A stretch of DNA of 32,000 nt from Candidatus Saccharimonadota bacterium (GTDB lineage: Bacteria > Patescibacteriota > Saccharimonadia > Saccharimonadales > UBA4665). Below the pieces are notes generated by a model, which worked only from the letters and a program-made list of their open reading frames with translations, made no database searches and was not told where the DNA came from. Both the position numbers and the translations under genes were made by a program. This document shows positions 1 through 23,494 of the stretch, in pieces. The first letter of the stretch is position 1; each line of letters opens with the position of its first letter. The DNA lies in NCBI GenBank assembly GCA_016700375.1, contig CP065016.1, forward strand, positions 150,001-182,000, given 5' to 3'.

Positions 1-168
1 ACTGAAATTACGGTCAATCATGGCCCACGTATGAAACGATTTCGACCTGCTGCCATGGGGCGCGCGCTGCCATACATGAAGCGGAGCAGCCACATACGAG
101 TTCTCGTCGATGGTGAACAACGTCCAACCAAAGCTGTTAAACCTGTAGCGAAGGAGACTAAGTCATGA
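1..168 (+). CDS. rplV: 50S ribosomal protein L22, 3' end (partial, runs off the window start)
   Basis: Frame 1 is open from base 1 to TGA 166-168. The translation ..[34 protein letters not shown].. matches the conserved L22 C-terminal core, and the gene lies directly upstream of rpsC as in S10 operons. Confidence 0.85.
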
Positions 169-301
169 AAATCCTAAGCACTAAGCACGAAATTCTAAAC
201 AAATTCAAATATTCTAATGTTTCAAATTTTCAAATTTTGGAACTTGTTCATTGTTTAGCATTTAGAAATTCGAATTTTGGATTTACTCCAGAAAGGAGTG
301 C
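169..301 (+). repeat. intercistronic hairpin module (rplV-rpsC), less regular member
   Basis: 133-nt spacer. CTAAGCA x2 at 174-187 and CAAATTTT x2 at 223-238. AAATCC 169-174 pairs with GGATTT 279-284, and CTAAACAA 195-202 pairs with TTGTTTAG 251-258. The SD GAAAGGAG lies at 291-298. Confidence 0.6.
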
Positions 302-934
302 ATGATGGGTCAGAAAGTTAACCCCATTAGCATGCGCCTGCAAGCCAATAAAGATTGGCGGAGCAAATGGTTTGTCGGCAAACGACAATACGCCGATTAT
401 CTTGCCCAGGATCTGCAGGTCCGCAAGCTCATTCAGGATAAGTTTGGCTCACGCGGTGCTATTAATAAAGTCGACATAGAGCGTTCGCCTAACCTCGTTA
501 CCGTTACAATCGCCACAGCAAAAGCTGGCGTGGTCATTGGTCGTGGTGGTCAAGGCGCCCAAGAACTGAAGGCCGCCATAGAAAAGGTATATGGCGTACC
601 GGCACGTGTAAATATTGAGGAAGTAAAAAAACCTGACCTGTACGCGAAGCTAGTTGCCGAGAACATTGCACATCAGCTAGAGCGACGTATGAGCTTCCGC
701 CGCGCTATTAAAAGCGCGAGTGCCGCCAGTATGCGTGCCGGAGCAAAAGGTGTCCGAATAGAAGTTGCCGGCCGCCTGAACGGTGCTGAAATGAGCCGCC
801 GCGAAAAAGAAGCTGTTGGTTCAGTGCCACTACATACCATCCGTGCAGATATTGACTTTGCCTCTGCCCGAGCAAACTGGCCCGGCGCAGGCATTATTGG
901 TATCAAAGTTTGGATATACAAGGGGGACAAATAA
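302..934 (+). CDS. rpsC: 30S ribosomal protein S3
   Basis: Track ORF with MGQKVNPISMRL.. and the KH/S3-C pattern. ATGs occur in tandem at 302 and 305; 305 gives the canonical MGQK start. SD at 291-298. Confidence 0.97.
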   Translation: MMGQKVNPISMRLQANKDWRSKWFVGKRQYADYLAQDLQVRKLIQDKFGSRGAINKVDIERSPNLVTVTIATAKAGVVIGRGGQGAQELKAAIEKVYGVPARVNIEEVKKPDLYAKLVAENIAHQLERRMSFRRAIKSASAASMRAGAKGVRIEVAGRLNGAEMSRREKEAVGSVPLHTIRADIDFASARANWPGAGIIGIKVWIYKGDK

Positions 935-1081
935 AATGATTTCATCATTTCAATTATCCTTTGGCCTGTCACCTGTCACATTGGATTATCCTGTCGCAAT
1001 TACCAATTGTTACATGTCACATGTCACGCCAATGTCACAGGTTACAGGTGACATGTTAATCGCGACTGAAAGGAGCTTTTA
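935..1081 (+). repeat. intercistronic hairpin module, TGTCAC-rich family copy A (rpsC-rplP)
   Basis: CCTGTCA x2 from 965 and ATGTCAC x2 at 1014-1027. The arm 1033-1055 (TGTCACAGGTTACAGGTGACATG) is complementary to 965-980. Tail GCGACTGAAAGGAGC at 1062-1076. Clearly alignable with 3113-3248 and 5380-5515. Confidence 0.8.
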
Positions 1082-1495
1082 ATGTTGCTCCCAAAAAGAA
1101 CTAAATTCCGCAAAGTCCGCAAGGGCAAGATTCGCGGTGTTGCCACAGCTGGCAATTACATTGCCTACGGCGAATACGCTTTGCAAGCACAAGGTCACGA
1201 ACGTATAACGAGCCGACAAATTGAGGCCAGCCGTCAGGCGATGACAAGGTACATTAAGCGCGGTGGAAAAATCTGGATTCGCATTTTCCCGCATACGCCC
1301 GTTACCCGCAAGCCACTGGACGTCAAAATGGGTAGTGGCAAGGGTTCGCCTGAGTTTTTTGTTGCCAAAGTTCGCCCGGGCACCATTATGTTTGAAATGC
1401 AGGGTGTCAGTGAGGAAACTGCAAGAGAAGCTATGCGCCTCGCTGGTCACAAGCTGCCAGTCAAGACAAAATTTGTCGTGAAGGAGGGCGTGTAA
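1082..1495 (+). CDS. rplP: 50S ribosomal protein L16
   Basis: Track ORF with the canonical [12 protein letters not shown]-terminus, at the expected operon position. Confidence 0.97.
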
Positions 1496-1604
1496 TGAGG
1501 TATAAGCATTCAGCGGAAAGGGGTAAGGGGTTTTCGTCTAGAACCCTTACTACTTACTACTTACTACTTACTACTTCTGAAGTGATGCCCGAAGGGAGGA
1601 ACGT
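1496..1604 (+). repeat. intercistronic heptad-repeat module (rplP-rpmC)
   Basis: Hairpin GTAAGGGGTT 1523-1532 / AACCCTTAC 1542-1550. CTTACTA x4 at 1546-1573. Tail CCGAAGGGAGGAACG at 1589-1603. Confidence 0.8.
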
Positions 1605-1805
1605 ATGAAAATAGCCGATATTCGTAAGCTTACTACGGCAGAATTGACCAAAGAAACAGTAAAGCTAAAAGATGAAATTGCCGAACTGCGTCGTCATATA
1701 TACATGGGTGATAACCAAAACGTACGAGATGTACGTAACAAGCGCAAAGACCTTGCTCGTATGCTCACCGTTTTAAGCGAAAATTTAGTTAAGGAGACGA
1801 AATAA
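1605..1805 (+). CDS. rpmC: 50S ribosomal protein L29
   Basis: 66 aa, MKIADIRKLTTAELTKE..LKDEIAELR pattern, located between L16 and S17. Confidence 0.93.
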   Translation: MKIADIRKLTTAELTKETVKLKDEIAELRRHIYMGDNQNVRDVRNKRKDLARMLTVLSENLVKETK

Positions 1806-1929
1806 TGGAAAATCCAAATTCCAAATTCCAAACTCCAAACAAATTCCAGCACTCAAATTCCAACGAAGCTCATTTGGAACTTGGAACTTGGAACTTGGAG
1901 CTTACAGCTCCTGAAAGGAGTCTGTAGTT
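1806..1929 (+). repeat. intercistronic heptad-repeat hairpin (rpmC-rpsQ)
   Basis: TCCAAAT/TCCAAAC x4 at 1813-1840 face TTGGAAC x3 plus TTGGAGC at 1874-1901. The arms are complementary at 6 of 7 positions per unit. SD CTGAAAGGAG at 1911-1920. Confidence 0.85.
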
Positions 1930-2232
1930 ATGGCCAAAACTATTACTGGTGTCGTCACGAGCAATAAGGCCGACAAGACCATTGTCGTCACTGTGCGAGA
2001 ACGAAAAACGCACCCGTTGTACCGGAAGCAGTACACCACAACGACCAAGTTTATGGCGCACGACGAAAAGAACGAAGCAAATGTGGGTGACAAAGTCGTT
2101 ATTGTCGAGACCCGACCAATTAGCAGACGAAAGAGTTTTACCCTCGGTAGTATTATCGAGAAAGCCGAAGTAAAGCATGTTGAAGCAGCCGTTGAAGTTC
2201 CGGGTGTAACCGATAAGGAACATGAATCATGA
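1930..2232 (+). CDS. rpsQ: 30S ribosomal protein S17
   Basis: KTITGVVTSNKADKTIVVTVRER..HPLYRK matches S17, at the expected operon position. Confidence 0.95.
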   Translation: MAKTITGVVTSNKADKTIVVTVRERKTHPLYRKQYTTTTKFMAHDEKNEANVGDKVVIVETRPISRRKSFTLGSIIEKAEVKHVEAAVEVPGVTDKEHES

Positions 2233-2338
2233 AGTATGAATCAAGAATCATGAAGAAATCTGGAGCTATCAGTCACAGCTCGGCTGACATTCTTCATTCT
2301 TCATACTCCATACTTCTGCGACTGAAAGGAGCACTCTG
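2221..2338 (+). repeat. intercistronic heptad-repeat hairpin (rpsQ-rplN); the 5' arm begins inside the last rpsQ codons
   Basis: GAAGTATG 2231-2238 pairs with CATACTTC 2309-2316. ATGAAGAA 2250-2257 pairs with TTCTTCAT 2290-2297. The arms are built of (G/T)AATCAT/GAAGTAT-type 7-mers. Tail GCGACTGAAAGGAGC at 2318-2332. Confidence 0.8.
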
Positions 2339-2707
2339 ATGGTACAGCAAGAAACTCGTCTCGTCGTCTGCGATAACAGCGGTGCAAAGGAAATTCTCTG
2401 CATCCGAGTGCTCGGTGGTACTCGGCGCCGCTATGCCAAGGTAGGTGATATTATTACCGCCACGGTAAAGCAAGCAAGCCCAACCGGGAACGTAAAGAAG
2501 AAATCGGTGGTACGGGCGGTTGTTGTCCGTACACAGAAAGAGCTGAAGCGCAAAGACGGCAGCACGATTAAGTTTGATGACAATGCGGCGGTGATTATCG
2601 GCGACGACAAAAACCCGAAAGGCACACGCATATTTGGCCCTGTGCCACGAGAACTTCGTGATATGGGCTACGCCAAAATTATCAGCTTGGCGCCGGAGGT
2701 ACTATAA
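2339..2707 (+). CDS. rplN: 50S ribosomal protein L14
   Basis: [18 protein letters not shown].. is a canonical L14 start. Confidence 0.97.
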
Positions 2708-3112
2708 ATGAGTAGTAAGCAGAAAGTAGTAAGTAGTAAGGTGTTTAAGATTAGATTGAAAAAAGGTGACCTTGTGCAGGTGCTAAGCGGAAAGTACAAA
2801 GGCAAGCAGGGCAAAGTTGTTCGCACGCACGCTACAGAAAACAAAGTTACCGTAGAAGGCGTGAATATTGTCAAGAAGCACCAGAAGCCAAACCAGGCGC
2901 ACCCGCAAGGAGGCATTCTTGAAATAACCAAACCAATTGCCGTCGGTAAGGTTGGCATAGTTGACCCGACCACAAAGAAACCGACTCGTATTGGGTACAA
3001 GATGAACAAAGATGGTAGCAAGACTCGTATATATAAGTCGAGCGGCAAAGAAGTGAAGATAGAAACAGCCCCCAAGAAGGCTGAGACCAAGAAAGAAGCG
3101 AAGGTACTATGA
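2708..3112 (+). CDS. rplX: 50S ribosomal protein L24
   Basis: KOW motif [20 protein letters not shown]. The ATG abuts the rplN stop (TAAATG). The first ~11 codons are encoded by AGTAGTA heptads, so GTG 2741 is an alternative start. The C-terminal tail is K/E-rich. Confidence 0.9.
2711..2740 (+). repeat. AGTAGTA heptad array inside the rplX 5' coding region
   Basis: AGTAGTAAG at 2711-2719 and AAGTAGTAAGTAGTAAG at 2724-2740. This is the exact reverse complement of the CTTACTA array at 1546-1577. Confidence 0.8.
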
Positions 3113-3248
3113 AGACAAGATTACCAATGAACCTGTCACCTGTCACCATGGATTACCCTGTTACCTGTAACAATTGCGACACGTCACATGCTACACCAAT
3201 GTCACACGTCACACGTCACACGCTAATCAGCGACGAAAGGAGCTTCTA
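3113..3248 (+). repeat. intercistronic hairpin module, TGTCAC-rich family copy B (rplX-rplE)
   Basis: CCTGTCACCTGTCAC at 3132-3146 and GTCACAC x3 around 3200-3220. Tail GCGACGAAAGGAGC at 3230-3243. Alignable with copies A and C. Confidence 0.8.
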
Positions 3249-3851
3249 ATGGCAGAAGCGACTACAACTAAGAAAGCTCCAAAGACAGCTGCGCCATACG
3301 TAGCTCGTCTAAAGACCGAGTACAATAACCAGTATGCTACAGAGCTCATGAAGGAACTTGGGCTTACCAATGCACATCAGGTACCACGGCTTGAGAAAAT
3401 CGTTGTCAACGTCGGACTTGGCAAGGCCAAGGAAGACAAAAAGACGATTGAAGCGGCTAAAAATACGCTTCGCAAAGTCACTGGCCAAGAACCAGTCGAG
3501 ACTGTTGCGAAGAACTCAATTGCAGGCTTCAAACTCCGTGAAGGCAACATGATAGGCTTAAAACTGACGCTTCGTGGTGAACGCATGTATGAGTTTATGG
3601 ATAGACTCATTAATATTGTGCTGCCGCGTTTGCGTGACTTCCATGGTGTCAGCAACAAGGCATTTGATAAACAGGGCAACTTTAGTCTCGGGCTAACCGA
3701 CCAGAGTGTGTTCCCGGAGCTTTCGTTTGAAGAAACTACCACTCCTCACGGGTTACAAGCAGTTTTTGTTATACGCGCCGAGGAAAAAGCACACGCTAAA
3801 GCACTGCTGAGCAAATTTGGTATGCCGTTTGAAAAGGAGAATTCAAAATGA
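3249..3851 (+). CDS. rplE: 50S ribosomal protein L5
   Basis: The track ORF starts at 3174, but its first 25 codons are spacer-repeat sequence. ATG 3249 follows GAAAGGAGC. PRLEKIVVNVGLG and the downstream sequence are typical of L5. Confidence 0.95.
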   Translation: MAEATTTKKAPKTAAPYVARLKTEYNNQYATELMKELGLTNAHQVPRLEKIVVNVGLGKAKEDKKTIEAAKNTLRKVTGQEPVETVAKNSIAGFKLREGNMIGLKLTLRGERMYEFMDRLINIVLPRLRDFHGVSNKAFDKQGNFSLGLTDQSVFPELSFEETTTPHGLQAVFVIRAEEKAHAKALLSKFGMPFEKENSK

Positions 3852-3993
3852 GTCATGAGTCAAGAATCATGAGTCATGAGTGGAAAATACCAGCAACGGA
3901 GTTGCTGTCAATAATAACTCGGCGGAGCCGAGACGATGGAGTCTTGTCTCATGACTCACGTCTCTTGACTCTGCGACTGGAAGGAGCCCTGTA
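3848..3993 (+). repeat. intercistronic heptad-repeat hairpin with two inner GGA-loop hairpins (rplE-rpsN)
   Basis: GAGTCAAGA 3857-3865 pairs with TCTTGACTC 3963-3971. TGAGTCATGAG 3870-3880 pairs with CTCATGACTCA 3948-3958. Inner hairpins are CAGCAAC-GGA-GTTGCTG 3891-3907 and CTCGGC-GGA-GCCGAG 3918-3932. Tail GCGACTGGAAGGAGC at 3973-3987. Confidence 0.85.
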
Positions 3994-4263
3994 ATGGCCA
4001 GAAAATCGAACCTCGCGCGTGATAAAAAGCGCATCAAGATGATAGACAAATACGCTGCAAAGCGCAAAGAGCTAAAAGAGCTTGGTGATTTTGACGGTCT
4101 CGCAAAACTACCTCGCAACAGCTCTCCGACTCGCCGTAAAAATCGCTGTGTCGAAACAGGGCGGCCACATGCCTACATGAGACAATTTGGCTTGAGTCGT
4201 CTGTCTTTTCGCGAGCATGCAAGCAAGGGTGAAATACCTGGTGTAACGAAAGCGAGCTGGTAA
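3994..4263 (+). CDS. rpsN: 30S ribosomal protein S14 (long, Cys-poor form)
   Basis: 89 aa with the canonical S14 C-terminus ..[39 protein letters not shown]. It has only one Cys, so no zinc ribbon. Confidence 0.95.
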
Positions 4264-4420
4264 TGGACGCTTCGCTTCAATTTTCATTTAGCAATTTTCA
4301 ATTAACAAAGAATTATCGATTGGCCATTAACAATGTAACTACAAATCGCACATTGCCAATCGCCAATTCATCGCGAATTGCCCATAGCCAATCGCTAATT
4401 TTTTCGAAAGGAGGCAACGC
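4264..4420 (+). repeat. intercistronic module (rpsN-rpsH), CAATTTT / GCCAATC units
   Basis: 157-nt spacer. CAATTTT-type units at 4278-4305 face AATTG/CCAAT-containing 7-mers at 4341-4400. SD GAAAGGAGG at 4406-4414. The pairing is less clean than in the other spacers. Confidence 0.55.
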
Positions 4421-4822
4421 ATGAGTACAACTACTACTGATCCTATCTCCGACATGCTAACTCGAATTCGCAACGCGATTGCAGTTGGAAAGACCGAAGT
4501 TAGCTTGCCACATAGCAAAATCAAAGAAAATGTCGCCATTAGCCTGCGCAATAACGGCTTCTTACATGATGTTAGCACCGAGGACCTCACCGTTGGTAAG
4601 CGTTTGCACATTACCATCAACCTAGAAGGTGAAAACGCTAAAATTACTGAGATTAAGCGTCTTAGCAAGCCGGGTCGTCGTTCTTACACGAACGCCCGCG
4701 AAGTGCCTCAGGTAAAACGCGGTCGCGGCGTGCTCATCATTTCGACTTCAAAAGGTCTTATGACCGGCGAAGAGGCCAAGCAACAAGGAGTTGGCGGAGA
4801 ACTAATCTGCCAGGTTTATTAG
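4421..4822 (+). CDS. rpsH: 30S ribosomal protein S8
   Basis: DPISDMLTRIRNA motif, at the expected operon position. Confidence 0.96.
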   Translation: MSTTTTDPISDMLTRIRNAIAVGKTEVSLPHSKIKENVAISLRNNGFLHDVSTEDLTVGKRLHITINLEGENAKITEIKRLSKPGRRSYTNAREVPQVKRGRGVLIISTSKGLMTGEEAKQQGVGGELICQVY

Positions 4823-4839
4823 TCTAAGAAAGGAAAGAA

Positions 4840-5379
4840 ATGAGTCGAGTAGGAAAACTACCCATCCAAGTTCCAAGCGGTGTGACAATCACTGTCGACT
4901 CAGACGCTGTGAAGGTGTCTGGGGCCAAAGGGAATCTTGAAACACCTCAGTTAGAGGGAATTACTGTTAGTGTTGAGGACGGCGTCCTCACTGTATCCCG
5001 TGCAAATGATATGCCGAAGATTCGCGCTGCTCATGGCCTTATGCGCGCACTCATAAACAATATGGTGCAAGGTGTTAGCCAGGGCTTTAGCAAAAAGTTA
5101 GAGTTAAACGGTGTTGGCTACCGTGTTGCCATGCAAGGCACCGACCTCAAACTCAATATTGGTTTTAGCCACGATGTTATATACAAAGTGCCGAGCGGCG
5201 TGCAAGTAGCCGTCGAACAAAACACCATGACGGTGAGCGGCATAAACAAACAGCAAGTTGGCCAGGTAGCCGCTGAAATCCGCGCTCTTAAGAAGCCAGA
5301 GCCGTACAAGGGCAAAGGTATAAAGTACGAAGGCGAACGTATTTTGCGCAAGTCGGGTAAGTCAGGAAAGGACAAGTAA
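4840..5379 (+). CDS. rplF: 50S ribosomal protein L6
   Basis: MSRVGKLPIQVPSGV.. is a canonical L6 start. The gap after rpsH is short (17 nt) and has an AAGGAAAG SD. Confidence 0.96.
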   Translation: MSRVGKLPIQVPSGVTITVDSDAVKVSGAKGNLETPQLEGITVSVEDGVLTVSRANDMPKIRAAHGLMRALINNMVQGVSQGFSKKLELNGVGYRVAMQGTDLKLNIGFSHDVIYKVPSGVQVAVEQNTMTVSGINKQQVGQVAAEIRALKKPEPYKGKGIKYEGERILRKSGKSGKDK

Positions 5380-5515
5380 TGAAAAAATTATCCATTACCC
5401 TGTCACCTGTCACCTTGCATTACCCTGTCACCTGTCACAATGGTTACATGTCACACGGTACATCAATGTTACATGTCACACGTGACACGCTAATCTGCGA
5501 CGAAAGGAGCTCCCT
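5380..5515 (+). repeat. intercistronic hairpin module, TGTCAC-rich family copy C (rplF-rplR)
   Basis: CCTGTCACCTGTCAC occurs twice (5399-5413 and 5424-5438) and ACATGTCACAC twice. Tail GCGACGAAAGGAGC at 5497-5510. Confidence 0.8.
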
Positions 5516-5869
5516 ATGAGCCTATCTACCAAACTTGTCCAGCGTGCCCAGCGCAAAAATCGCATACGTGCGACAGTGATTGGCACCACCGAACGGCCTC
5601 GACTGAGCATCCACATTAGCAATGCAAATGTAAGCGCACAAGTTATTGATGACAGCAAACACCACACGCTTGCTTCAGTGACTACCGCAAACAACAAGGC
5701 CGCCAAAGGCACCCTGACCGAAAAAGCTGTATGGGTTGGCAATGAAATTGCTCTTGCGGCTAAAAAGGCAAATATATCCCAAGTAGTATTTGACAGGAGC
5801 GGCAAGCAGTACCATGGCCGCGTAAAAGCCCTCGCCGATGCGGCACGGGAGAAAGGATTGGAGTTCTAA
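5516..5869 (+). CDS. rplR: 50S ribosomal protein L18
   Basis: RKNRIR..ERPRLSIHISNANVSAQVIDD matches the L18 pattern. Confidence 0.95.
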   Translation: MSLSTKLVQRAQRKNRIRATVIGTTERPRLSIHISNANVSAQVIDDSKHHTLASVTTANNKAAKGTLTEKAVWVGNEIALAAKKANISQVVFDRSGKQYHGRVKALADAAREKGLEF

Positions 5870-5991
5870 ATGAAATACTTCGTATTTTCTGAGGGCAAAG
5901 GGCAAAGGGCAAAGGGCAAAGTTAGCTCTAATGAACTCAGCCCTCAGCCCTCAGCCCTCAGCCCTGTTCTGACCGAAGGGAGGAACGCATA
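5870..5991 (+). repeat. intercistronic heptad-repeat hairpin (rplR-rpsE)
   Basis: GGGCAAA x4 at 5893-5920 face TCAGCCC x4 at 5937-5964. GGGC pairs with GCCC and one A-U pair forms per unit, leaving 2 mismatches at a fixed phase. Tail CCGAAGGGAGGAACG at 5973-5987. Confidence 0.85.
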
Positions 5992-6777
5992 ATGGCCGAA
6001 GAAGCAATACAACAAGCCGCAGTCGAACAAGCCGCGCAGGCAGGTCCACAATCTGCTCCACACCGTGGAGGCCAAGGGAACCGCGGCGGCCGTCGTGATG
6101 GTGGCCGACCGGCACGTAGCCGCAGCGAAGCACCCGAAGAAAAACAATTCGATGAACGCGTTGTGCACATTGACCGTGTTGCCCGCGTTGTGAAGGGTGG
6201 ACGTCGCTTTCGTTTCCGAGCCCTCGTCGTTGTGGGTGACCGCAAAGGCAAGGTAGGTATTGGAAGCGCGAAGGGCGCAGATGTAACAGCTGCCGTGAGT
6301 AAGGCGACTGAAGTTGCTAAAAAGCACTTTACGCCAGTTGTGCTATATAAGGGAACCATTCCACATGAAGTCAATGGTAAGGTTGCCGGCGCGCGTATTT
6401 TAATTATGCCAGCTGCACCGGGTACCGGGCTTATTGCCGGTGGTGTTGTTCGCACCGTTCTTGAAGTTGCCGGTGTGAGCAATGCGCTTAGTAAATCACT
6501 TGGCAGTAGTAACAAAACGAACATTGCCTACGCTACCATTGCCGCTCTTGAAAGCCTTGAGCCAAGCAAGAACTGGGTAACTACAAAACACAAGAGTCAA
6601 GAGTCAAGAGTCAAGAGTCAAGACAAAAAAACTCAGATTACAGCTGTCATTCCGAGCAAAGCCGAGGAATCCCCGCAAAAAGATTCCCAGGTGAAAACTG
6701 CCCCTGTTAAAAAGACATCCGAGGTAAAAAAGGCAGTGTCGGCTAAAAAGCCTGCTGCGAAAAAGGAATCAAAATGA
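5992..6777 (+). CDS. rpsE: 30S ribosomal protein S5 with a long C-terminal extension
   Basis: The S5 core is present (ERVVHIDRVARVVKGGRRFRF, ...GTGLIAGG..). At 261 aa it is far longer than the usual ~165-220 aa. The ~80-aa K/S/E-rich tail is partly encoded by GAGTCAA heptads. Confidence 0.95.
   Translation: MAEEAIQQAAVEQAAQAGPQSAPHRGGQGNRGGRRDGGRPARSRSEAPEEKQFDERVVHIDRVARVVKGGRRFRFRALVVVGDRKGKVGIGSAKGADVTAAVSKATEVAKKHFTPVVLYKGTIPHEVNGKVAGARILIMPAAPGTGLIAGGVVRTVLEVAGVSNALSKSLGSSNKTNIAYATIAALESLEPSKNWVTTKHKSQESRVKSQDKKTQITAVIPSKAEESPQKDSQVKTAPVKKTSEVKKAVSAKKPAAKKESK
6594..6621 (+). repeat. GAGTCAA x4 heptad array inside the rpsE 3' coding extension
   Basis: Four perfect tandem 7-mers encoding ..SQESRVKSQD... 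They are complementary at 6 of 7 positions per unit to the (A)TGACTC units at 6834-6861. Confidence 0.85.
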
Positions 6778-6883
6778 GACAAGAGACAAGAGACAAGAGA
6801 CAAGAATTAGTTATCAGTCGCAAAGCGACTGTCATGACTCATGACTCATACTTCATGACTCAGCGACTAAAAGGAGCCCTATA
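6776..6883 (+). repeat. intercistronic heptad-repeat hairpin (rpsE-rplO)
   Basis: GAGACAA x4 at 6776-6803 (overlapping the rpsE stop) face TCATGAC-type x4 at 6832-6859. Inner hairpin CAGTCGC-AAA-GCGACTG at 6815-6831. Tail GCGACTAAAAGGAGC at 6863-6877. Confidence 0.8.
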
Positions 6884-7351
6884 ATGAAATATCATGAACT
6901 TACTTCGACGCCGAAAAAATCAGGCAAGCGTGTTGGTCGCGGTATTGCAGCTGGCCAGGGTAAAACGGCTGGTCGTGGTACCAAAGGACAAGGTGCACGT
7001 ACCGGTTCCAGCAAGAAGCCGGGCTTCGAAGGTGGCCAAAACCCACTTATGCAGCGTTTGCCAAAACTACGGGGCTTCCGTAGCTTTCGAGTAAAGGCAG
7101 AAAACGTATATACTGAACAGCTCGATACGCTCGGCTCTAAGGTAGACAACAAAGTTCTCGCTGCTTCTGGGCTTGTCAGCAGCGAATATGTTCGCGTCAA
7201 GCTACTTTTCCGAGGTGAAGTCAGCAAGAAAGTTGATGTACAGCTTCAAGCAGCTAGCCTCAATGCTATGGAAGCGTTACAAAAAGCGGGGGGTAGCTTT
7301 ACACCCGTTCCAAGACGCATGCGTCCTGCTAAAAAAGAAGCAGAGAAATAG
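6884..7351 (+). CDS. rplO: 50S ribosomal protein L15
   Basis: KRVGRGIAAGQGKTAGRGTKGQ matches L15. It follows rpsE directly, with no L30 gene between them. Confidence 0.95.
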   Translation: MKYHELTSTPKKSGKRVGRGIAAGQGKTAGRGTKGQGARTGSSKKPGFEGGQNPLMQRLPKLRGFRSFRVKAENVYTEQLDTLGSKVDNKVLAASGLVSSEYVRVKLLFRGEVSKKVDVQLQAASLNAMEALQKAGGSFTPVPRRMRPAKKEAEK

Positions 7352-7371
7352 AGCAAACTGTCTTAAGCAGC

Positions 7372-7404
7372 AAAAAGGCGCTTTCGAAAGCGCTTTTTTG
7401 TTTT
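7372..7404 (+). terminator. intrinsic terminator after rplO
   Basis: AAAAAGGCGCTTTCGAAAGCGC palindrome (stem GCGCTTT/AAAGCGC) followed by TTTTTTGTTTT. Confidence 0.7.
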
Positions 7405-7420
7405 ATTACAGCAAAGAGGC

Positions 7421-7429
7421 TGTTATACT
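7421..7429 (+). promoter_or_regulatory. extended -10 promoter element upstream of secY
   Basis: TGtTATACT lies 37 nt before the secY GTG. The -35 is weak (TTTTAT 7401-7406). Confidence 0.45.
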
Positions 7430-7465
7430 GGGACTGAAGAAATATAGTGTATAAGAGGGGTTTTC

Positions 7466-9004
7466 GTGAACTGGAAGATTATTGGCGCATCATTTAAACA
7501 AGGCGATATGCGAAAGCGCATTTTTGGGGTACTTGGTATATTATTGATTTTTCGCATTTTGGCGCACATACCGGTGCCACTGGCTGACCCGCAAACCCTT
7601 AAACAAGTACTGACAAACCTATTTTCGTCACAAGATACACCGCAGCTACTCAGTTTTATAAACGTTTTAAGTGGTGGTGCGCTGGCTAACTTTTCTATTA
7701 TGATTGCGGGGCTTGGTCCATACATTAATGCCAGCATTATTATGCAACTGCTTACGAAGGCAATCCCCAAGCTTGAGAATATGCGTAAAGACGGCGAATC
7801 GGGGCAGAAACGCATAAACCAGTACACCCGACTCCTGACGTTCCCCTTGGCAATTATCCAGGCTATAGGTTCAATTTATCTTGTTCGTCAGTATGCGCAG
7901 CAAGTCGGTGGCATAGGTGATATTACGGCAAACACTTCTTTATGGCAGTGGGCTCTAATGGTCGCGGCACTCACAGGTGGGTCAATGCTTTTGATGTGGA
8001 TGGGAGAGCTTGTTACCGAGAAGTCAGTTGGTAATGGTATTTCACTGCTCATTACCGTGGGCATCGTAAGCGCCTTGCCAGGAACCATTAGTCAGGTTGC
8101 TTCATCTATATACGACAAAACAAACAAATGGGAGATTTTTGGACGTGAACTGCCTATTAACGCTCGGGCGTTCTGGTATGCACTGGCAATTCTTGCGGTC
8201 GTAATTTTGGTGACATGGATTGTAGTTATGCTGAACGAAGCAGCCAGACGACTAACCATAAACTACGCGAAACGAGTGCAGGGAAACCGGGCGTACGGTG
8301 GCGTCACCACGACACTTCCGGTAAAGCTTATAACCGCGGGTGTTGTACCAATAATCTTTGCTATTGCTTTCTTAAGCGTCCCTAGCTTTGCTGGGCAGCT
8401 AATGACCTCTAGTAGTAACCCGAAATGGGCTGAGCTTGGTCAAAACCTTGTCACGTGGTTCCAAAACCCTACGGCGCAAACACTGGCTGCAGGTGGGCTG
8501 CAAGCCTATATATACCCGGTAACGTATTTCTTGCTAGTTTTCCTTTTCACATTCTTTTATACGAGCATTACGTTCAACAGCAAGGAGATAGCCGAAAACC
8601 TACAGAAGCAGGGCGGTTTTATTGAAGGCGTTCGTTCTGGTACGCAAACTGAACGGTATCTAGCAAAAACGGTCAATAAAATTACACTGTTTGGGGCGAT
8701 ATGCCTGGGTATTTTGGCAATTATGCCCATAGTGGCGCAAATGTTTGTTCCAGAAAACCTTGCACTTGCTCTGGGTGGCACAAGCGTTTTGATACTTGTA
8801 GCCGTTTCGCTCGAAACGCTTCGCGCGGTAGAGTCGCGTGCGCTCATGATTACCTATGACCAATATAGTCGCGATGACTTTTTCTACGACTCTCAGGGAG
8901 GAAATGGTTCGGTTGCTGCAAATCGGGGCGCAAAAGCACTTCGCTACGTTCCAAATGCGCTGCGCCGAATCCCAGCGAAAATCTCGAGCAAAAACAAGAA
9001 GTAA
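7466..9004 (+). CDS. secY: preprotein translocase subunit SecY
   Basis: GTG start with SD AGAGGGG at 7454-7460. It is a multi-TM protein with the SecY signatures (..GLGPYINASIIMQLL..). At 512 aa it carries a ~60-aa C-terminal extension. Confidence 0.95.
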   Translation: MNWKIIGASFKQGDMRKRIFGVLGILLIFRILAHIPVPLADPQTLKQVLTNLFSSQDTPQLLSFINVLSGGALANFSIMIAGLGPYINASIIMQLLTKAIPKLENMRKDGESGQKRINQYTRLLTFPLAIIQAIGSIYLVRQYAQQVGGIGDITANTSLWQWALMVAALTGGSMLLMWMGELVTEKSVGNGISLLITVGIVSALPGTISQVASSIYDKTNKWEIFGRELPINARAFWYALAILAVVILVTWIVVMLNEAARRLTINYAKRVQGNRAYGGVTTTLPVKLITAGVVPIIFAIAFLSVPSFAGQLMTSSSNPKWAELGQNLVTWFQNPTAQTLAAGGLQAYIYPVTYFLLVFLFTFFYTSITFNSKEIAENLQKQGGFIEGVRSGTQTERYLAKTVNKITLFGAICLGILAIMPIVAQMFVPENLALALGGTSVLILVAVSLETLRAVESRALMITYDQYSRDDFFYDSQGGNGSVAANRGAKALRYVPNALRRIPAKISSKNKK

Positions 9005-16952: not shown

Positions 16953-16963
16953 ACTTGTTTCAG
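16949..16963. repeat. left 15-bp inverted repeat flanking the GIY-YIG ORF
   Basis: CTGAACTTGTTTCAG. It contains the trpS stop TGA (16950-16952) and is the perfect reverse complement of 17271-17285. Confidence 0.85.
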
Positions 16964-16975
16964 GATCCAAACATT

Positions 16976-17290
16976 ATGAAAGAATCATATGTGTACATAC
17001 TAGCCTCAAAAGCTCGTGGAACTTTGTATATCGGTGTTACCAATAGCTTTGAGCGAAGGTATTTTGAACATTCGATGGGCCTAAATGGCGAAAGCTTTAC
17101 TCAGAAATATAACGTTAAACGGCTCGTATATTTTGAAAAGTGCGATTCTATAGAACAGGCTATAGTTAGAGAAAAACAGCTTAAGAATTGGCATAGACAG
17201 TGGAAAATTAATCTCATTGAGTCTGTAAACCCTGGCTGGGATAATCTGAGTATTCGTTATGGTATAGATGCTGAAACAAGTTCAGCATGA
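16976..17290 (+). CDS. GIY-YIG nuclease superfamily protein (YhbQ/UPF0213-like)
   Basis: YVYILASKARGTLYIGVTNSFERRYFEH.. is a GIY-YIG motif. The alternative TTG start at 16955 is the one used by the track. The ORF looks AT-richer than its neighbours by eye. Confidence 0.75.
   Translation: MKESYVYILASKARGTLYIGVTNSFERRYFEHSMGLNGESFTQKYNVKRLVYFEKCDSIEQAIVREKQLKNWHRQWKINLIESVNPGWDNLSIRYGIDAETSSA
17271..17285. repeat. right 15-bp inverted repeat flanking the GIY-YIG ORF
   Basis: CTGAAACAAGTTCAG, lying inside the last codons of the ORF. Confidence 0.85.
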
Positions 17291-19954: not shown

Positions 19955-20371
19955 ATGCGACCTAAAGAGAAGGGTGATATTGCAATTGCTAAAGCTATTA
20001 ATTATTTCATGAGTTGTAATTTTGAAGTGTGTTTACCTATAGGTGATAAACGAGATTACGATTTGGTTGTTGAAAAAGAAGGGAAGCTGCAAAGAGTACA
20101 GGTGAAGTATGCTGGACTTTACCCTGGACAAAAAAGTTGTAAGGTGGCTCTTCGTATCACGGGAGGTAATCAATCGTTTCATTATAGTAAAAAGTATAGA
20201 GACGACGCATTCGAACTTCTTTTTGTATACACTGCAAAAGAACAGGAATTTGTCGTAAACTGGTCAGAGATAACTGCTAGGAATGAGTTATCCATTGAAC
20301 ATAAAAAGTATAATAAGTACCTCATAAACTCGAGCAGGGTTAGTGAAGCGGTCAAACACGATAGACTGTAA
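19955..20371 (+). CDS. PD-(D/E)XK nuclease, resembles the intron-homing endonuclease family typified by I-Ssp6803I
   Basis: KGDIAIAKAINYF..CLPIGDKRDYDLVVEKEGKLQRVQVK gives the D..(E/Q)xK core. About 33% GC by hand count of the first 118 nt. The last 12 codons overlap the 5' half of tRNA-Tyr, and the stop TAA is in its anticodon loop. Confidence 0.55.
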   Translation: MRPKEKGDIAIAKAINYFMSCNFEVCLPIGDKRDYDLVVEKEGKLQRVQVKYAGLYPGQKSCKVALRITGGNQSFHYSKKYRDDAFELLFVYTAKEQEFVVNWSEITARNELSIEHKKYNKYLINSSRVSEAVKHDRL

Positions 20372-23371: not shown

Positions 23372-23494
23372 GTTTTACTCCATAGGAGTAAAACATGGGA
23401 GAAGTAAGGAGTAAGGAGCGAGGAGTAAGGAATGAAAATTCCTGATCCCTTACTACTTTATGCTTACTGCCAGGCACACACCACCACGGCGACA
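23372..23494 (-). repeat. intercistronic heptad-repeat hairpin plus an SD/AUG-sequestering hairpin (GH57-GH15)
   Basis: On the + strand, AGTAAGG x4 (third unit degenerate) at 23403-23430 face CCTTACT-type units at 23447-23469. The apical hairpin is GGAAT-GAAA-ATTCC. The 15-bp stem 23367-23399 (CCCATGTTTTACTCC-ATA-GGAGTAAAACATGGG) covers the GH15 SD and start codon. Confidence 0.8.

Follow-up and report, generated by a model that had tools for sequence, protein, structure and literature searches.

Few stretches of any bacterial genome are as conserved or as densely packed as the S10/spc ribosomal-protein operon. This raises the question of how long, repeat-filled spacers come to lie between most of its genes in a 32,000-nt stretch of a Candidatus Saccharimonadota genome (assembly GCA_016700375.1, contig CP065016.1, positions 150,001 to 182,000 of the forward strand; hereafter the window). 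We propose, with a probability of about 0.7, that these spacers are insertions of dispersed, non-autonomous repeat families that resemble miniature inverted-repeat transposable elements (MITEs) and mycobacterial interspersed repetitive units (MIRUs), and that they are tolerated because each brings a bridging open reading frame (ORF) and its own Shine-Dalgarno (SD) sequence, which would preserve translational coupling. Each insert is called a cassette here, and its bridging frame a small ORF (sORF).

Architecture of the spacers and their bridging frames

The S10/spc genes occupy positions 1-7351 of the window on the plus strand in the order rplV (3' end), rpsC, rplP, rpmC, rpsQ, rplN, rplX, rplE, rpsN, rpsH, rplF, rplR, rpsE and rplO, and secY and then the alpha-operon genes lie 3' of rplO; gene names were taken from the Pfam-labelled gene order of loci sharing sequence with the window. 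From rplV to rplO the junctions measured 133, 147, 109, 124, 106, 0, 136, 142, 157, 17, 136, 122 and 106 nt, and 11 of the 13 are long (106-157 nt), as a first-pass annotation of this DNA had reported. Cassettes thus occupy 11 of these 13 junctions, against 1 of about 22 other co-directional junctions in the window (p=2e-6; 22 is an approximate count from the ORF list). When the 32 kb were searched with Tandem Repeats Finder, period-7 arrays were found in the spacers, at two intragenic places and at one more site (23403-23431), and nowhere else. The period-7 autocorrelation against shuffled controls that the first-pass annotation had suggested was significant in every spacer: lag-7 self-identity exceeded all 2000 shuffles in each of the 12 (p<0.0005 each), with a pooled value of 0.474 versus about 0.24 at other lags. 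Coding regions showed period 3 only, whereas the spacers showed no period 3. The complementary heptad arms were likewise borne out by 24 inverted-repeat pairs of at least 16 nt within 150-6900, all 24 of which lay inside spacers and were 70-90% complementary, and the predicted helices carried the mismatch at a constant heptad phase.

Every cassette in the operon opens, at its 5' end, with an ATG at the upstream stop codon. A 5' arm of 3-5 tandem heptads starts directly at the 5' boundary and is separated by a loop or by small sub-hairpins from a 3' arm that is its approximate complement; an SD tail (GAAAGGAG or GGGAGG) and a stop codon at the downstream ATG complete the unit. The heptad sequences are many, and the arrangement is always two complementary arrays followed by the tail. 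The tail GCGACTGAAAGGAGC was found with at most one mismatch at 1062, 2318, 3973 and 6863 (0.09 expected by chance), variants one base shorter were found at 3230 and 5497, and the tail CCGAAGGGAGGAACG was found at 1589 and 5973 (0.05 expected by chance). The proposed division into two tail classes therefore holds in that both are far above chance, but three spacers (169, 1806 and 4264) carry other tails. An SD-bearing tail was confirmed before each ATG, with the SD 3-9 nt upstream.

The spacers had been pictured as non-coding gaps, and this picture had to be abandoned. Each long spacer in the window (12 of 12) is an ATG-started ORF of 36-53 codons that is coupled to both neighbours; one predicted peptide reads MRQETRDKRQELVISRK. 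The sORF ATG overlaps or abuts the upstream stop codon (ATGA or TAATG; offset -3 to +2 nt in the 12 spacers), an SD-like motif stands in the last codons of the upstream gene before 10-11 of the 11 operon sORF starts, and the sORF stop overlaps the downstream ATG (TAATG, ATGA or TGATG) except at rpmC/rpsQ, where it falls 5 nt short. Stop codons are present in the remaining two frames of each operon spacer. Furthermore, TGA-containing heptads are broken where the TGA would fall in frame (TCA AGA at 2244 and 3863, TCA CGT at 3954, TCA TAC at 6848): in cassette 5, AGA stands where a perfect CATGAAT repeat would give an in-frame TGA, and in cassette 11 the in-frame TGA of the third unit is replaced by TAC.

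The same organization was found in relatives. Sequences related through the L5 protein (69-90% identity) all came from metagenome-assembled genomes (MAGs) of Candidatus Saccharibacteria/Saccharimonadales, and our sample comprised 91 Saccharibacteria sources, namely the window and 90 further loci (L-numbers below denote compared loci). Long junctions, defined in relatives as at least 60 nt (n=240), were bridged by an ORF in 216 cases (90%), compared to 17.7% in a control in which the spacer interior was shuffled and the ends were kept. Of the unique spacers between 60 and 200 nt long (n=152), 86% had an open bridging frame, as against 4% for the other two sense frames and 10% for the antisense frames. 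The sORF start codon was ATG in 187 of 190 cases and was preceded by an SD, and the 3' overlaps were mostly -1 (113 cases) and -4 (51 cases). All long junctions, both the 12 in the window and the 240 in relatives, lay between co-directional genes. Bridging depends on junction context: it was about 100% at natively overlapping junctions and 16 of 23 at rpsH/rplF (Fisher p=0.003), where the native spacer of 17-18 nt has its own SD. Taken together, these features indicate that the spacers are predicted bridging small ORFs, which would change the mechanism to be considered for them.

The cassettes and related arrays of the window are as follows (arms are given as 5' / 3'; z is the z-score of the predicted fold; empty denotes an allele of the named locus in which the junction is unfilled).

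165..305 (+), cassette 1, rplV/rpsC: sORF of 46 aa, ATGA start at the rplV stop, TGA overlapping the rpsC ATG; arms 169-202 / 251-284; SD 292-298 within a CUCC...GGAG mini-hairpin
936..1082 (+), cassette 2, rpsC/rplP: CCTGTCA family; 48-aa sORF with a TAATG end; arms about 965-984 / 1029-1048; tail GCGACTGAAAGGAGC 1062-1076; empty in L009
1495..1608 (+), cassette 3, rplP/rpmC: sORF of 37 aa, TAATG start and ATGA end; 5' arm 1503-1529; CTTACTA x4.4 at 1546-1576; tail CCGAAGGGAGGAACG 1589-1603; empty in L001, L007 and L009
1805..1927 (+), cassette 4, rpmC/rpsQ: 40-aa sORF that stops 5 nt short of the rpsQ ATG; arms 1806-1839 / 1873-1906 (TCCAAAT versus TTGGAAC); SD 1914-1920; z -4.3
2229..2339 (+), cassette 5, rpsQ/rplN: sORF of 36 aa, from ATGA to TGATG; arms 2221-2254 / 2288-2316; tail 2318-2332
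3109..3249 (+), cassette 6, rplX/rplE: CCTGTCA family; sORF of 46 aa; arrays 3131-3147 and 3201-3222; tail 3229-3243; hairpin decayed (z +1.4); empty in L007 and L009
3848..3994 (+), cassette 7, rplE/rpsN: 48-aa sORF; arms 3848-3881 / 3939-3971, enclosing two sub-hairpins; tail 3973-3987; z -3.7
4263..4424 (+), cassette 8, rpsN/rpsH: sORF of 53 aa; arrays 4276-4308; arms 4307-4334 / 4377-4404; SD 4407-4414; empty in L001 and L007
5379..5519 (+), cassette 9, rplF/rplR: CCTGTCA family; sORF of 46 aa; array 5399-5438; arms 5419-5439 / 5474-5494; tail 5497-5510; empty in L001, L007, L009 and L010
5870..5992 (+), cassette 10, rplR/rpsE: sORF of 40 aa; arms GGGCAAA x4 5892-5921 / TCAGCCC x4 5936-5965; tail 5973-5987; z -4.9
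6774..6884 (+), cassette 11, rpsE/rplO: sORF of 36 aa; arms GAGACAA x4 6776-6805 / TCATGAC-type units 6832-6862; tail 6863-6877; empty in L010
23364..23495 (-), cassette 12, outside the ribosomal operon between GH57-family and GH15-family genes: 43-aa sORF that begins at TGATG and closes with a ATGGGTAG overlap; arms AGTAAGG / CTTACTC; z -4.0
2711..2740 (+), solo heptad array: AGTAGTA x4.3, lengthening the N-terminus of L24 by 7 in-frame codons
6591..6623 (+), intragenic heptad array: CAAGAGT x4.7, in frame in a C-terminal extension of S5

A near-identical paralog of cassette 11 was found at rpsM/rpsK in L001. The two intragenic arrays are probably remnants of such elements. The array at 2711-2740 is probably a solo arm fused in frame to L24, and rplX encodes 134 aa in the window versus 127 aa in L001, L007, L009 and L010. 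Similarly, the array at 6591-6623 resembles the 5' arm of the GAGTCAA/GAGACAA family and is probably an arm absorbed into S5, which is 261 aa long in the window and 248 aa in L007. At rplD/rplW of a metagenomic locus (L113), an element 3' arm and tail lie in frame at the C-terminus of L4 (...SAKSSKLPIQATERSA*), and the L4 stop therefore overlaps the L23 start. As for the end of cassette 1, rpsC probably starts at ATG 305 (SD spacing 6) rather than at 302, because the gene calls of relatives give 209 aa; the sORF stop would therefore form a TGATG overlap.

Insertion polymorphism, repeat families and distribution

Ten contigs with an identical L6 protein, drawn from independent NCBI, ENA, JGI and Logan assemblies, differed by presence or absence of the inserts at most window junctions; the sequencing runs behind L001-L006 were from aquatic and activated-sludge samples. 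Empty alleles (-1 to +10 nt) were found in these strains at 9 of the 11 junctions. The alternative alleles at rplE/rpsN and rpsQ/rplN were mainly different inserts and not tight junctions; those at rplE/rpsN were other inserted ORFs, and one at rpsQ/rplN was a different heptad family. At rplR/rpsE, the window carries the GGGCAAA/TCAGCCC type, L001 a GAGACAA/TCATGAC type and L002 a CTAAGCA type, and the junction is empty in L007. For most gene pairs of the operon, the median junction length across the 91 sources was -1 to +2 nt.

When the 240 inserts were clustered, families emerged that occupy up to 15 junctions and 14 loci, with up to 41 copies in the sample. Similar copies were found at different junctions of the same genome (three near-identical in L012, two in L001, six in L039, nine in L090 and four in L013), and element-rich genomes such as L002, L012, L077 and L090 were interspersed with element-free relatives, as expected from mobile-element bursts. 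Cassette 10 had no relative among the 240 inserts. All copies were co-oriented with transcription and carried an SD. Of the two readings that the first-pass annotation had offered, that of a MITE-like, SD-carrying family was thus better supported, by the presence/absence polymorphism, the swapping of families at a junction, the families spanning many junctions and many species, and the near-identical paralogs, but the spacers have to be viewed as predicted coding sequence.

Conservation was seen at the nucleotide level. The tail GCGAC(T)GAAAGGAGC gives RLKGA in its longer form and DERS in the form that is one base shorter, and copies of a family without heptads (see below) use two reading frames; since one sequence can thus stand in different frames, it is the nucleotide sequence and not the peptide that is conserved. 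The unit common to paralogs extends from the ATG through the GGAGC of the tail, and each site has its own 5-8 nt immediately ahead of the downstream ATG. In L012 the shared unit starts earlier and takes in an SD and spacer, which make up the final codons of the upstream gene.

The tail was also found outside Saccharibacteria. When metagenomes were scanned for the tail with TAATG after it, 71 stretches were returned, where by our estimate roughly a handful would be expected by chance, and period-7 or period-8 arrays lay just upstream of 51% of the tail hits versus 6% of other gene-upstream regions of the same contigs. About 20 of the hits were bridged sORFs, mostly among ribosomal-protein genes (the S10/spc and alpha operons, upstream of rpsL and rpsG), with further bridged sites upstream of RNase III-like and rmlA-like genes; all these gene names were read from N-terminal sequences. 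The remaining hits were untranslated and preceded dnaK, groEL, argB, rplU, ssb, flgG and other genes; cluster look-ups placed some of the hits in Omnitrophota and in Terracidiphilus (Acidobacteriota). The module of heptad foldback and SD is therefore wider than Saccharibacteria, and the bridging ORF accompanies insertion into tightly coupled junctions.

Several further observations concern the same genomes and tails. In other phyla the same tail, often as GAGCGACTGAAAGGAGCGAGGTAATG, follows complementary heptad or octad arrays and is untranslated upstream of highly expressed genes (L136, L146 and L156, Omnitrophota rplU; L093, Terracidiphilus flgG; L104, L101, L131 and others). A viral-classed IMG/VR contig (L162, 7440-7554) carries AGGATTC-type and CTCGAACC-type arms and then GAGCGACTGAAAGGAGCGATAATG before an ORF. 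A junction element without heptads, with about 75 conserved nt (GGGAAAAGAGCAGCC..hairpin..CCCTGCGCGATGAGAAAAACCG..AGGTTTGTCTCAT), is absent from the window but occurs at L001 7104-7214 and at 19 other junctions in 14 loci, shows clear hairpin covariation and had no Rfam match at E<=1. Larger coupled ORFs of 54-124 aa stand in relatives at rplB/rpsS, rplD/rplW, rplE/rpsN and rpsH/rplF (L001 4437-4811, 2907-3164 and 9066-9311; L002 1350-1676 and 6126-6290; L007 2635-2898; L004 5072-5245); they are strain-variable, contain no repeats, match no Pfam family, and one is clearly hydrophobic. In the window, the rplO/secY spacer (7352-7465) holds no cassette and has a palindrome, GCGCTTTCGAAAGCGC, followed by a T-run, resembling a terminator; L002-L006 have an additional 165 nt there (L002 9845-10123). 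Two stand-alone nuclease-domain ORFs were also seen, one of 111 aa with a GIY-YIG domain (16955-17290) and one of 138 aa with a PD-(D/E)XK domain (19955-20371), the latter flanked by tRNA genes.

Proposed tolerance of the inserts and competing explanations

In the mechanism that we propose, a ribosome ending an upstream ribosomal-protein gene would re-initiate at the cassette ATG by means of the SD in the 3' end of that gene, the same SD that directly serves the downstream gene in empty alleles. It would then translate across the hairpin, melting it, terminate at the overlapping stop/start and re-initiate on the downstream gene with the aid of the cassette SD. Translational coupling along the operon would survive the insertion; insertion at otherwise untouchable junctions would therefore be nearly neutral, and selection would retain only those insertions in which the bridging frame is still open. 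Termination-reinitiation at ATGA/TGATG overlaps fits this mechanism (PMC6728339), and MIRUs and engineered bicistronic designs provide a precedent for the principle (PMC12548453). The sORF peptide is probably irrelevant, and by analogy the heptad arms look like a DNA-level feature, such as terminal inverted repeats enlarged by slippage, and not like a tuned mRNA signal.

The first-pass annotation had alternatively suggested RNA-level punctuation, in which selected hairpins would serve as processing sites, as 5'/3' stabilisers or as coupling structures and the sORF would just let ribosomes pass. We regard this as unlikely. As a class the heptad inserts do fold better than shuffles (mean z -2.6, 62% below -2), and in one family (L090, L077) the helices reached 94% pairing with 7 doubly changed pairs, exceeding shuffled and slid controls. 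A hairpin had been claimed for every spacer; arms are indeed present everywhere, and a strong or moderate fold was obtained in 7 of the 11 operon spacers (z of -4.9, -4.3 and -3.7 in three, about -2 in four), but the other four (1496, 2233, 3113 and 5380, one of them at +1.4) folded no better than shuffles, and the CCTGTCA family in the window has largely lost its helix and kept its ORF. Nor was there a strand bias: sense and antisense strands had alike z-scores (-2.6 versus -3.0, p=0.13), which does not support the mRNA-specific hairpin that G-U pairs would lead one to expect, and raw folding energy favoured the antisense strand (p=2e-6) because the sense strand is G-poor. Strand asymmetry, being such a composition effect, is no argument for or against an RNA function. 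Pairing of the SD points both ways, since its probability was 0.66 in the tails versus 0.45 at native junctions, but barely above the 0.62 of a composition control (p=0.03). SD occlusion as the key to coupling was rejected on this ground and counts only as a minor point, although it is real in cassettes 1 and 4, where the pairing probability is close to 1, and in cassette 12, where the minimum-free-energy fold places the SD inside a 10-bp hairpin. The common orientation of the SD-bearing copies, and the recurrence of tail and heptads before highly expressed genes of other phyla, also fit selected RNA signals. However, the elements are dispensable, most junctions being empty in close strains and in most species. 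Intrinsic terminators or promoters were not enriched in the spacers, and no U-tracts were found 3' of the hairpins. At the Rfam 15 gathering score the window matched tRNAs only; in E-value mode, positions 1-7500 gave just sub-threshold matches to generic-hairpin microRNAs, and L001, L076 and L082 gave no match.

That the sORFs encode functional micro-proteins, such as ribosome-associated peptides, with the repeats incidental, is extremely improbable. The specifically open frames, the ATG and SD at their starts, the fact that gene callers predict them as genes and the likeness of peptides within a family would all be expected of real proteins, but copies read the same nucleotides in different frames, there is no period-3 signal, and in the heptad arms all three frames necessarily contribute to the peptide. 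In addition, peptides at one junction are wholly different between families and are absent from sister strains. No Pfam match was obtained for the 54- and 57-aa junction ORFs or the larger inserts of relatives, the set scanned (heptad-cassette sORFs were not included), and we rejected functional peptides on the basis of frame switching, the missing period 3 and this result. It is very unlikely, too, that each spacer arose locally, through slippage of heptanucleotides and inverted duplication at its own junction, without exchange among sites. In many prokaryotes long simple-sequence repeats are most often heptanucleotides, which are usually attributed to slippage (PMC4679880), and cassette 10 has no relative in the sample; for most cassettes, however, a local origin is already contradicted, as non-repeat parts, loops and tails are common to different junctions, some paralogs are near-identical, and unrelated families occupy the same junction in sister strains.

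Several points weigh against the insertion of mobile, coupling-preserving elements. About 10% of the long junctions were unbridged under the criteria used, some of them merely overlapping deeper into the next gene, and the shared ATG and terminal stop could be partly built into the element instead of being selected at each site. The comparisons show the insertion polymorphism, the family structure, the specifically open frame and the nucleotide-level conservation; translation of the sORFs, coupling as the selected property and the way in which the elements move are inferred. Comparisons of filled and empty sites gave no constant target-site duplication (apparent 0, 1, 2 and 7 nt, TAAGGAG once), and no gene for a transposase or for a REP-associated tyrosine transposase (RAYT, Y1-transposase-like) was found among the window ORFs scanned; because of these two results, the case for mobility is drawn from distribution only. 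The bridging ORF is not intrinsic to the wider element class, because the tail and heptad arms occur untranslated in other phyla. Finally, the conserved tail, the strict co-orientation and the one covarying family leave room for an RNA-level role.

As to how the elements might move, a TA/TAA duplication (as in IS630/mariner-like elements) misfits the filled/empty pairs, and neither insertion 3' of a fixed tetranucleotide (as in IS200/IS605-like elements) nor insertion exactly 3' of the ancestral ATG fits all of these sites. A blastn search of phage and plasmid collections with cassette 7 gave no match. Microhomology at the SD and the stop/start motif is one possible route. More speculatively, and in our judgement doubtful, the heptad foldback with its GCGAC-U-GAAAGGAGC tail may belong to cross-phylum mobile ribosome-binding-site cassettes that home to SD-start regions by a dedicated, undescribed mechanism and become a translated bridging cistron in the coupled operons of Saccharibacteria. 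Such cassettes might also be useful to the host, for instance if their SD-occluding mini-hairpins enforce or tune coupling.

If the spacers are insertions that preserve coupling, then selfish DNA can colonise even the S10/spc operon, provided that it brings its own means of handing on ribosomes, and these elements would offer a direct test of the limits of termination-reinitiation coupling. The inserts generate many small 'hypothetical protein' calls in Saccharibacteria MAGs and provide strain-level markers within a universal marker operon. Repeats in S10/spc could in principle also upset assembly, binning and ribosomal-protein phylogenies.

Relation to known repeats and bicistronic leaders

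The first-pass annotation had held that no described element class resembles these modules, which is too strong in view of MIRUs and of tandem heptamers upstream of start codons. Literature searches on heptanucleotide hairpins, on Saccharibacteria repeats and on the tail sequence turned up no account of such elements. Small, non-autonomous, multi-copy hairpins with inverted arms that operons tolerate between their genes, that are co-transcribed and that vary in presence between strains are familiar from MITEs, repetitive extragenic palindromes and their mosaics (REP/BIME), enterobacterial repetitive intergenic consensus (ERIC) sequences and Correia elements. The cassettes share with MITEs a length of 105-160 nt, many copies, inverted terminal arms and a foldback (class mean z -2.6, with some copies decayed), and differ from them in the absence of a constant target-site duplication from the filled/empty comparisons. 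MITE-type repeats are normally untranslated, lie after stop codons and do not bridge two cistrons with an SD and a start/stop; they come with defined terminal inverted repeats and target duplications, or with a transposase as partner (RAYT for REP), none of which was found here.

Rickettsia palindromic elements are, reportedly from Ogata et al. in 2000, repeats of about 100-150 bp that can form hairpins and that persist in essential coding DNA because they keep the frame and undergo translation. These elements lie inside genes and join the host protein, whereas the cassettes are separate cistrons between genes; the two probable in-frame remnants at 2711-2740 (L24) and 6591-6623 (S5) are the cases here that resemble them. 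In-frame repeat insertions have been reviewed (PMC3184786).

Heptamer-type repeats include the short tandemly repeated repetitive (STRR) sequences of cyanobacteria. Tandem TAACTGA heptamers, often directly upstream of start codons, occur with a patchy distribution in Beggiatoaceae, Cyanobacteria and Bacteroidetes (PMC4679880). The cassettes share with TAACTGA and STRR repeats the 7-nt tandem units in intergenic DNA near start codons. In contrast, those repeats are direct arrays of a single stop-containing motif, with no complementary arm, SD tail or bridging ORF.

Bicistronic designs (BCDs) are said to go back to Mutalik et al. in 2013. They are synthetic, and the natural cassettes additionally have a long foldback and occur as mobile families. 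As described in PMC12548453, a BCD consists of a leader cistron with a second SD in its 3' end and a stop over the gene start (TAATG), and translation of the leader clears inhibitory structure and brings ribosomes (Sun et al. 2021, cited therein). The elements of the window would be natural counterparts of such leader cassettes, which were designed for structure-independent expression.

The closest parallel in the way of working is offered by MIRUs, reportedly the subject of Supply et al. in 1997. The cassettes resemble them in lying between co-directional operon genes, in having a coupled internal ORF and in occurring as filled and empty sites. According to PMC12548453 and PMC3184786, MIRUs are short, mobile intercistronic repeats whose internal ORF runs in the direction of the flanking genes, is coupled to them with overlapping ends (-4 nt) and is co-transcribed, and filled and empty sites are known and are read as insertions that minimise the effect on downstream expression. 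The same sources describe MIRUs as units of 40-100 bp, often in tandem variable-number arrays, in Mycobacterium and with flanking tetranucleotide direct repeats, and report neither heptad-periodic arms nor a long foldback. The Saccharibacteria cassettes, unlike MIRUs, are single foldbacks of 105-160 nt with heptad arms, a conserved SD tail, predominantly TAATG (-1) overlaps and no constant flanking repeat. We conclude that the cassettes work like a MIRU and are not members of that family, a comparison made by description and not by MIRU consensus sequence. The architecture of heptad arms and SD tail, the host phylum, the near-saturated S10/spc operon and the cross-phylum tail appear to be undescribed in the literature searched; the principle is known from MIRUs, and these elements extend it to a distant phylum and a different element architecture.

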